From assembly GCF_013315695.1 (NCBI RefSeq), contig NZ_CP054353.1: 64,000 nt of DNA. The stretch is one strand, 5' to 3'. Within the stretch, counting starts at the first letter, position 1, and each line of letters opens with the position of its first letter. The notes beneath the pieces were generated by a model. It did not search any database and had not been told where the DNA came from. It saw only the letters and a list, made by a program, of their open reading frames with translations. This DNA is from Escherichia coli. Its GTDB lineage: Bacteria > Pseudomonadota > Gammaproteobacteria > Enterobacterales > Enterobacteriaceae. This document shows positions 24,166 through 24,693 of this stretch, in pieces. The translations under genes were made by a program, and so were the position numbers.

Positions 24166-24693
24166 GATGGTGCCCTCAGTGAGCCAGAGAGTTCAGTGTA
24201 CGGGAATTCGTTTGCGAGCAGAACTGATAATATTCCTTTGTTCCCTTCTTAAATATCTATCTTTCTTGATAATTGACGATAAATACAGATAAAAATTTAG
24301 CAAAAAGTTTTCCCCCTACAAACAACAGTAATTCATTAACTCTTTATTTTTCATTTGGTTAATGGTTTTTCTCAATTCTGGCACGCTTCTCGCAATAACA
24401 CTTTTGCGTTGATACTGAATTTCAAAGGGGATTAAACCCCGTCGGCACACCAGGAACGGCCAGGCTGTTTTCCGGGCGTGTTCCGTCAGCCTTTGACGCT
24501 AATTACGGGTTCGATTCCCGAATTCATTCCTGAAATGAATACTGGTTGTAACTTATTAAATAAAAAATGGGGGATTGCGCAGTCAGCGATCCCCGATAAC
24601 GTCGCCGATAAAGACGCCGGGATACAGGCAAAAGGGAATTCCCCTGTCTCTTCGTGTCTGCTTCCGCGACGGCTGTTAAGCAAGGAATAGATA

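Follow-up and report, generated by a model that had tools for sequence, protein, structure and literature searches.

The tRNA-like RNAs called b7a-tRNAs were reportedly described by Burroughs and Aravind in 2016, an account that reaches us second-hand through Wang et al. As presented by Wang et al. (2018), b7a-tRNA strongly resembles authentic tRNA, adjoins a Band-7 gene and RtcB, and is experimentally unvalidated; that Band-7/slipin proteins and tRNA-like RNAs act in bacterial RNA repair has been a prediction since 2016. RtcR is activated by cyclic-phosphate tRNA halves (PMC7790460), and RlaP enzymes, which are tied to RNA repair, extend RNA 3'-OH ends by one or two nucleotides (PMC12776372). 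Here we analyse a 64,000-nt segment of an Escherichia coli chromosome (contig NZ_CP054353.1, hereafter the window), in which the order is rrn ... rluF, yjbD, a slipin-rlaP cassette, lysC with its lysine riboswitch, and pgi, and we ask what the 528 bp between yjbD and slipin (24166-24693) encode.

We conclude, with a probability of roughly 70%, that 24379-24693 is the promoter and the ~290-nt folded leader of the slipin-RlaP cassette, and that it would act as an RtcR-induced RNA partner or leader of the slipin/RNA-repair module. Judged from sequence and position, it is a reduced form of a known kind, the b7a-tRNA leader of Band-7 RNA-repair operons, and its additional conserved RNA domains appear to be undescribed. 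Alignments show it to be homologous to the rtcR-linked leaders of slipin-rtcB-rlaP operons in many beta- and gammaproteobacteria. Its elements, with the regulatory sites on either side, are the following:

24258-24292, + strand: putative RtcR upstream activating sequence, TATCT-N5-GATAAT-N3-CGATAA-N5-GATAA (motif scan)
24379-24394, + strand: sigma-54 type promoter TGGCACGCTTCTCGCA, -24 GG at 24380-81 and -12 GC at 24392-93 (read from the sequence)
24414-24490, + strand: 5' domain, a three-way junction of ~80 nt (covariation, covariance model)
24506-24520, + strand: T-arm-like hairpin, CGGG / UUCGAUU / CCCG (unique word, covariation, cloverleaf model)
24522-24540, + strand: post-T hairpin, ATTCATT / cctga / AATGAAT (single-sequence folds)
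24541-24549, + strand: invariant single-stranded ACUGGUUGU (alignment)
24570-24594, + strand: hairpin H6, GGGGAUUGC / GCAGUCA / GCGAUCCCC, with one U-G pair (folds)
24600-24671, + strand: 3' domain, a long interrupted hairpin with apex GGCAAAAGGGAAUUCCCCUG (alignment pair counts)
24682-24687, + strand: ribosome-binding site AAGGAA (read from the sequence)
24694-24696, + strand: slipin ATG (read from the sequence)

An initial annotation of the window had described a GC-rich, hairpin-dense leader starting at 24419. It had the length of the intergenic region right, and the four motifs that it cited, GGGGATTAAACCCC (24427-24440), GGGTTCGATTCCC (24507-24519), ATTCATTcctgaAATGAAT (24522-24540) and GGGGGATTGCGCAGTCAGCGATCCCC (24569-24594), each occur once in the window, where it had placed them; its stable hairpins are likewise all correctly located and belong to a conserved + strand RNA. 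The label "GC-rich" is apt relative to the AT-rich neighbour (49.5% in the annotated segment vs 35.6% in 24166-24418) and inapt against the whole window (51.5%). The start needs revision too, since structure begins further upstream, with the first helix at 24414-24415 and the promoter at 24379-24394, and the part of the intergenic region shared with K-12-type genomes ends at ~24296 and not at 24419.

Compared with shuffled versions of 24400-24700, the + strand has the more stable fold (z = -2.74), and the effect is weaker on the - strand (z = -1.67). We aligned 13 leaders: three E. coli alleles, two from Citrobacter and eight from other Enterobacterales (Phytobacter, Pseudocitrobacter, Pluralibacter, Superficieibacter, Enterobacter sp., Siccibacter, Mangrovibacter and Hafnia). 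RNAalifold returned the 5' domain, the T-arm and the long 3' hairpin at the positions listed above, and 96% of the cells in the 48 consensus pairs are paired, vs 39-47% in slid-partner controls. The compensatory changes that the initial annotation had proposed looking for in homologous leaders are abundant: both sides change in 25 of the 48 pairs, and no shuffle reaches the observed values. G-U pairs, which become A-C mismatches on the opposite strand, are frequent in the consensus and therefore indicate a + strand RNA. Identity between E. coli alleles is 94-97% in the leader and 86-95% when only the third codon positions of slipin are compared. The AGG core of the ribosome-binding site and the slipin start codon are conserved in the alignment, and ribosome-binding site and ATG lie outside all predicted conserved helices.

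In the 5' domain, a closing helix S0 (24415-18 with 24486-89) brackets hairpin H1 (GGGG 24427-30 with CCCC 24437-40) and the long-arm helices P_a (24443-51 with 24475-85) and P_b (24455-60 with 24464-69). Among the 10 leaders from outside E. coli, 97.4% of cells are paired and 11 of 27 pairs carry double changes, a result equalled in 0 of 500 shuffles. A covariance model built from these 10 leaders finds the window element at 24410-24494 (64.7 bits, E = 5e-13) as its sole significant match in the window, and at loci of Pseudomonas, Rhodocyclales and Neisseriales it also matches where the domain should lie. The second-round model recovered 30 more loci, all on the + strand and just upstream of tRNA-like units, and overall the domain is present at 55 of 80 slipin loci; K-12 and the E. 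coli rtcBA locus gave no match to it. The family-wide alignment, itself fitted to the model, has 95% of its cells paired (slid controls, 41-51%) and compensatory change in 23 of 27 pairs. No Rfam family matches the 5' domain, and we found no mention of it in the literature, within which Burroughs and Aravind (2016) is known to us second-hand. The Providencia vermicola leader (L012, ~3672-4000) keeps the promoter and has no match to the 5'-domain model at E ≤ 0.1.

We considered CGTCAGCCTTTGACG as a D arm or anticodon arm and rejected it: its TCAG pairs better, and with covariation, with the upstream CTGA of helix S0, while the local hairpin has 81% of its cells paired and covariation no better than shuffles. 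For this same TCAG (24486-89), the S0 pairing with 24415-18 is thus well supported and the local GTCA-N5-TGAC pairing (24485-24497) weakly so; the alternative pairing is a possible structural switch.

The T-arm is the only part of the leader that resembles a tRNA. Its word GGGTTCGAWTCCC is found a single time in the 64 kb (0.00 expected from 100 shuffles), the sequence GGUUCGANUCC at 24507-24519 is a tRNA-type T-arm as in b7a-tRNA, and its stem covaries, a C-G pair becoming U-A in E. coli A17 and C. freundii. The resemblance noticed in the initial annotation is hence real and unique, but it does not extend beyond this arm, and scans of the kind proposed there were negative: ARAGORN called 0 genes and the Rfam tRNA and tmRNA models found no match. 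More broadly, the Rfam gathering-level scan of the window, a scan of 24100-24800 at E ≤ 10 and ARAGORN gave nothing at the locus, weak matches to SAM-III and SpF11 being dismissed as chance-level. In the window, a cloverleaf model of b7a-tRNA (38 units) picks out the T-arm alone (model positions 51-65, 14.9 bits), and the same holds in Citrobacter, Phytobacter and Pluralibacter. Elsewhere in the window, the gathering-level Rfam matches are ordinary known features: STnc430 at 32454-32602 (-), three naRNA4 (REP-type) elements at 6796-6873, 40135-40205 and 44362-44432 (+), and the lysC lysine riboswitch at 30363-30559 (-).

Downstream of the T-arm, folding predicts a post-T hairpin, with differing stem sequences, for 12 of the 13 Enterobacterales; its position corresponds to that of the hairpin after tRNA-like unit 2 (see below) in beta- and gammaproteobacterial leaders. 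The adjoining ACUGGUUGU is identical in E. coli, Citrobacter, Phytobacter, Pseudocitrobacter and Superficieibacter, and neither the 13-leader alignment nor the folds offered a covarying partner for it; pairing of ACACCAG (24447-53) with CTGGTTGT (24542-49) was rejected, the 5' side being variable and the 3' side invariant, so that there is no covariation. ACUGGUUGU holds a GG, and it could mimic a D loop contacting the T-loop or be a protein-binding site. A hairpin stands at the H6 position in all 13 Enterobacterales leaders (single-sequence folding recovers at least 11 of 13), with several compensatory changes in the stem and a loop, GCAGUYA, that is kept in E. coli, Citrobacter and Superficieibacter. 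The 3' domain consists of an outer helix (24600-09/24662-71) and an inner one (24621-32/24639-50); 13 of its 19 pairs show double changes, 95-100% of cells are paired, and it ends 11 nt before the ribosome-binding site. Of 75 loci, 12 have its apex motif, RGGCRRAA...YYCCCC, in the 260 nt before slipin, compared with a background of 0.0005 per 260 nt.

Two other products of this segment were discarded. A minus-strand small RNA, with H6 and a T-run as its terminator, is opposed by the C-A mismatch into which the U-G pair of H6 turns on that strand, by the absence of a terminator in the scan and by the weaker fold z-score. A + strand small open reading frame (ORF; 24478-24690) is broken by stops and by frame-breaking length changes in other alleles and species. 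A small ORF is also present on the - strand (24486-24683).

Leaders outside Enterobacterales usually carry two tRNA-like units, ~70-76 nt apart. Unit 1 is a mini-helix of acceptor plus T-arm, often ending in an encoded NCCA, and in five loci (L022, L027, L018, L045 and L074) this NCCA mini-helix is directly followed by a full cloverleaf, ~300-420 nt upstream of slipin. Unit 2 is the full cloverleaf: its D arm, TAGCTCA..GGTAGAGC, is invariant, and its anticodon stem covaries strongly while its loops are variable, some being tetraloops. The 38 cloverleaf units upstream of slipin genes have 94% of their cells paired, and many of the tRNA-like units at this position are recognized by ARAGORN and by the Rfam tRNA model. 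The Enterobacterales leaders show positional homology with these, with the 5' domain upstream and the post-T hairpin downstream of the T-arm. As read from this comparison, the Enterobacterales element is a reduced derivative that has kept the T-arm and the post-T hairpin and lost the acceptor, D and anticodon arms. Phytobacter has such a T-arm-only leader and retains rtcR and rtcB, and the reduction is therefore not simply decay after loss of the repair genes. In four loci (L007, L008, L009 and L010, ~3790-3850), a 5-bp acceptor-like GCRAA/UUYGC pairing encloses the T-arm; Siccibacter has A-U in place of a G-C pair there, and in L008 the 3' strand may instead form the post-T hairpin.

Upstream of the leader, -24 and -12 elements with canonical spacing make 24379-24394 a sigma-54 type promoter, from which we predict a transcription start at ~24404-24406 (near 24405). 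The TGGCAC core and the -12 GC are invariant in 13 of 13 Enterobacterales leaders, and the other positions are nearly so; the E. coli rtcBA promoter has the same form, TGGCAC-N5-TxGCA. The GATAA-repeat motif further upstream (24258-24292) has the general form TATCY-N5-GATAAW-N3-CGATAA-N5-GATAA, and in a relaxed version it has 11 matches in 1.56 Mb of sequence searched on both strands, all of them at Enterobacterales loci and 121-134 nt upstream of a cassette sigma-54 promoter. It is a candidate RtcR binding site. The initial annotation, in its account of the leader, had overlooked both the promoter and the context of RtcR and RNA repair. The word AATTCATT/AATGAATT lies upstream of the cassette promoter (24330-24339) and of the E. 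coli rtcB promoter (L086, ~4169-4178), and it also makes the stem of the post-T hairpin (24522-24540), be it by coincidence or as a shared site.

To place the locus in its family, we scanned one genome per species with a slipin profile and obtained 80 loci, 75 with enough upstream and 68 with enough downstream DNA. The features counted were:

divergent rtcR upstream of slipin: 52/75 loci
strict sigma-54 match, TGGCAY-N5-T[TCG]GC (TxGC), upstream of slipin: 43/75 loci
one or two T-arm words (GGTTCGANTCC) within 900 nt upstream of slipin, same strand: 66/75 loci (background rate, 0.012 per 900 nt)
rtcB downstream of slipin: 49/68 loci
rlaP downstream of slipin: 28/68 loci

A homologous leader stands between divergent rtcR and slipin-rtcB-rlaP in Citrobacter and at ~50 other beta- and gammaproteobacterial loci. 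In the C. freundii record, the slot between yjbD and lysC holds a divergent rtcR, a 450-bp spacer, slipin and rlaP, and the spacer is 76% identical to window 24368-24667; Pfam recognizes Band_7, RlaP and RtcR with Sigma54_activat in these cassette genes, and RtcB in the Phytobacter and Pseudomonas slipin loci. The gene neighbourhood expected of b7a-tRNA is thus found, as slipin then rlaP here and with rtcR and rtcB in orthologous loci. Every E. coli genome carries its rtcR at the rtcBA locus and none has a cassette-linked copy; at the DNA level this rtcR is ~68% identical to the Citrobacter gene that is linked to the cassette. Likewise, rtcB lies elsewhere in the E. coli genome. RtcR would therefore have to activate the E. 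coli cassette in trans. Some betaproteobacterial loci have 3-11 ordinary tRNA genes directly upstream of the slipin leader (L036, 1532-3576; L049, 2523-2865; L054, 2578-2838; L060, 2102-2627), and these lack rtcR within 4 kb. In C. freundii a RelE/ParE-XRE pair lies between yjbD and rtcR (L003, 1579-2270).

Within E. coli, the complete 528-bp region is present in 1628 of 5426 complete genomes; the remaining ones, K-12 derivatives included, share only its first ~130 nt, to ~24295. Accordingly, ~30% of complete genomes have the slipin-rlaP module and ~70% are without the cassette. Comparison of the K-12-type yjbD-lysC spacer (L002, 2501-2752) with window 24243-24295 and 24602-24628 shows that K-12 retains the GATAA-repeat region beside yjbD and a 23-nt stretch 91% identical to part of the leader 3' domain. 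The cassette occupies the yjbD-lysC slot in Citrobacter and adjoins lysC (on riboswitch evidence) in Enterobacter sp. and Siccibacter, and no direct repeats flank it. Because K-12 keeps leader remnants, and because relatives carry the cassette in the same slot with no flanking direct repeats, the cassette-free state of E. coli looks like a deletion and not like an ancestral empty site. The region has no match in the phage collection. A plasmid origin was rejected, as the plasmid collection gave three matches: two very large records from E. coli, of 1.0 and 4.8 Mb, and one of 425 kb from C. freundii with the chromosomal genes rluF, lysC and pgi.

In E. coli, the cassette consists of slipin and, after it, the gene of a PF10127 RlaP nucleotidyltransferase; strains A17 (NZ_CP028757) and 4973 (NZ_CP103468) have it intact. 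In the window its genes are the following:

24694-25821, + strand: slipin (Band_7/SPFH, PF01145) pseudogene (translation, Pfam scan, RefSeq annotation)
25827-28056, + strand: rlaP (PF10127 nucleotidyltransferase), a split gene (blastn against intact loci; Pfam on the orthologue)
25946-27371: IS4-family element inside rlaP (Pfam Nterm_IS4 and DDE_Tnp_1 in the inserted ORF)

The slipin frame has an in-frame stop at codon 215, and RefSeq labels the gene in an identical strain "slipin family protein, internal stop". The fragments of rlaP are 25827-25945 and 27372-28056. Since slipin and rlaP are both disrupted, the cassette of this strain is probably inert. The IS4-family insertion made a 12-bp target duplication, and an IS1 copy (28110-28880) lies between cassette and lysC; in E. 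coli A17, a zeta-toxin family gene stands between rlaP and lysC (L005, 5989-6915).

These elements suggest a mechanism. Activated RtcR would bind the GATAA-repeat motif at 24258-24292 and drive sigma-54 transcription from ~24405. The leader, or a piece processed from it, would then be the RNA partner of a soluble slipin scaffold, in analogy to the pairing of YrlA/Y RNA with Ro60 in the RtcR-controlled rsr-yrlBA-rtcBA operon, and the T-arm might serve as a tRNA-elbow-like handle for tRNA-binding repair or modification enzymes. Two proposals of the initial annotation are supported as far as sequence can tell. A structured 5' UTR (untranslated region) for the cassette and a small RNA both fit a strongly covarying + strand RNA structure that lies after a sigma-54 promoter and directly before the slipin start, and that is homologous to leaders carrying tRNA-like RNAs in other bacteria. 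A bolder version is possible, and we advance it tentatively and by analogy: the whole leader might be a stand-alone multi-domain noncoding RNA, a "Band-7 RNA" in the role that Y RNA has for Ro60, with the 5' domain as its core and the tRNA-like units as accessories (reducible to a T-arm, as in Enterobacterales), and natural E. coli might have an RtcR-controlled second repair module that is deleted in K-12.

Several observations weigh against a leader that is the RNA partner of a repair module. ARAGORN, Rfam and, beyond the T-arm, the cloverleaf model are all negative for the E. coli element, so a "tRNA mimic" function may have been lost in this species. The Providencia vermicola leader has no T-loop sequence and instead a hairpin with a different 7-nt loop (seen by eye), and the T-loop is therefore not universally kept. 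The GATAA motif is only loosely resembled by the upstream region of the resident rtcBA, control by RtcR in trans is assumed for an E. coli cassette that has neither rtcR nor rtcB in cis, and both protein genes are pseudogenes in the window. Finally, a scan between leader and slipin found no terminator-like site, and the anatomy is equally compatible with a cis-acting 5' UTR. A purely cis-acting UTR, which would govern stability, processing or translation of the slipin-rlaP mRNA with no separate RNA or trans function, is further favoured by the contiguity of leader and slipin, by the short distance from the 3' domain to the ribosome-binding site, and by the lack in E. coli of a cloverleaf that RNase P or RNase Z could excise. 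Yet complete tRNA-like units, some with an encoded CCA, are present in most other lineages, where their excision is to be expected; neither the ribosome-binding site nor the start codon is part of a conserved helix; and five separately covarying elements over 260 nt exceed the needs of known UTR stabilizers. We therefore consider this account doubtful.

The co-transcription with RNA-repair genes predicted for the leader would also suit a decoy or sensor, that is, a bait for or competitive inhibitor of tRNA-cleaving toxins, or a source of cyclic-phosphate fragments for the CARF domain of RtcR, and a decoy role for tRNA nucleases has been raised in the literature for YrlA. Given that b7a-tRNAs have highly variable "anticodon" loops, many of them tetraloops, which mimic no particular anticodon-nuclease target, and that the Enterobacterales leader has no anticodon arm at all, we find such a role unlikely. 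Slightly less likely still is that the T-arm and hairpins are the decaying, functionless remains of a b7a-tRNA leader. The loss of the cloverleaf, of rtcR and rtcB from the E. coli cassette, of the cassette itself from ~70% of E. coli genomes, and of both intact protein genes from the window all speak for decay, and for this one strain that reading may hold; but the reduced form is common to genera that keep rtcR and rtcB (such as Phytobacter), compensatory change is abundant, indicating purifying selection on structure, and E. coli alleles differ less in the leader than at the third codon positions of slipin. The initial annotation had also offered the T-arm as the remnant of a tRNA gene used as an integration site at an island border. 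The T-arm word does lie in a region absent from K-12, yet this origin is very improbable: the border, at the K-12 breakpoint near 24296, is ~210 nt upstream of the T-arm; the T-arm does not recur as a direct repeat at the far end of the cassette; annotations of the cassette region in three E. coli strains and in C. freundii include no integrase; the T-arm holds a constant position in leaders across genera, with the cassette by lysC in Citrobacter, Enterobacter sp. and Siccibacter; and K-12 keeps the 23-nt leader remnant.

The locus makes the 2016 prediction testable in E. coli, the best genetic system at hand: ~30% of complete genomes have the compact slipin-rlaP module, with an apparently intact sigma-54 promoter and candidate activator site and with a strongly covarying leader. 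That the tRNA-like part can shrink to a T-arm, with selection still acting on the remainder of the leader, points to the other RNA domains as the functional core. And as K-12 seems to have lost the cassette by deletion, laboratory strains may be missing some of the RtcR regulon that E. coli has in nature.

Among described RNAs, canonical tRNA and the tRNA-like domain of tmRNA share with the leader the T-loop UUCGAUU, its G-C closing pair and a 4-bp stem, but the leader has no cloverleaf, acceptor end or CCA, and the corresponding ARAGORN and Rfam searches are negative. The YrlA Y RNA (Chen et al., 2014, PMC4201824; Wang et al., 2018) is closer: in this noncoding RNA, too, a tRNA-type T-arm leads straight into a closed stem-loop, its gene belongs to an RNA-repair operon of the RtcR type, and the role suggested for the leader, RNA cofactor of a scaffold, is analogous. 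It differs in that no rsr/Ro60 (TROVE) gene is annotated by the cassette in three E. coli strains and C. freundii, that no D stem-loop follows the closed stem, ACUGGUUGU being unpaired in every fold, and that the leader has neither a GNCGAA(N0-1)G Ro-binding motif (regular-expression search of 24395-24693) nor an Rfam match at E ≤ 10. A permuted YrlA-like tRNA was rejected for the same want of a D stem-loop, and because the presumed "acceptor" hairpin is the one that comes after the complete unit in other lineages.

Like the cassette promoter, that of E. coli rtcBA (Genschik et al., 1998, cited in PMC7790460) has the sequence TGGCAC-N5-TxGCA, which implies the same activator family, and an AT-rich upstream region with TATCC/GATA words; the rtcBA leader, however, is ~37 nt long and unstructured, the 5'-domain model finds nothing there, and the spacing of the upstream words differs. 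The nearest relative is b7a-tRNA. From it the E. coli and Citrobacter leaders differ in having no acceptor, D and anticodon arms, and hence no full cloverleaf, the present cassette in lacking rtcB and rtcR in cis, and the leader in its extra covarying 5' and 3' domains, of which we found no mention in a literature whose 2016 description is known to us second-hand. With it the leader shares its place directly upstream of the Band-7/slipin gene of an RtcR/RtcB/RlaP repair module, the same T-loop sequence, and a homologous position between the 5' domain and the post-T hairpin.

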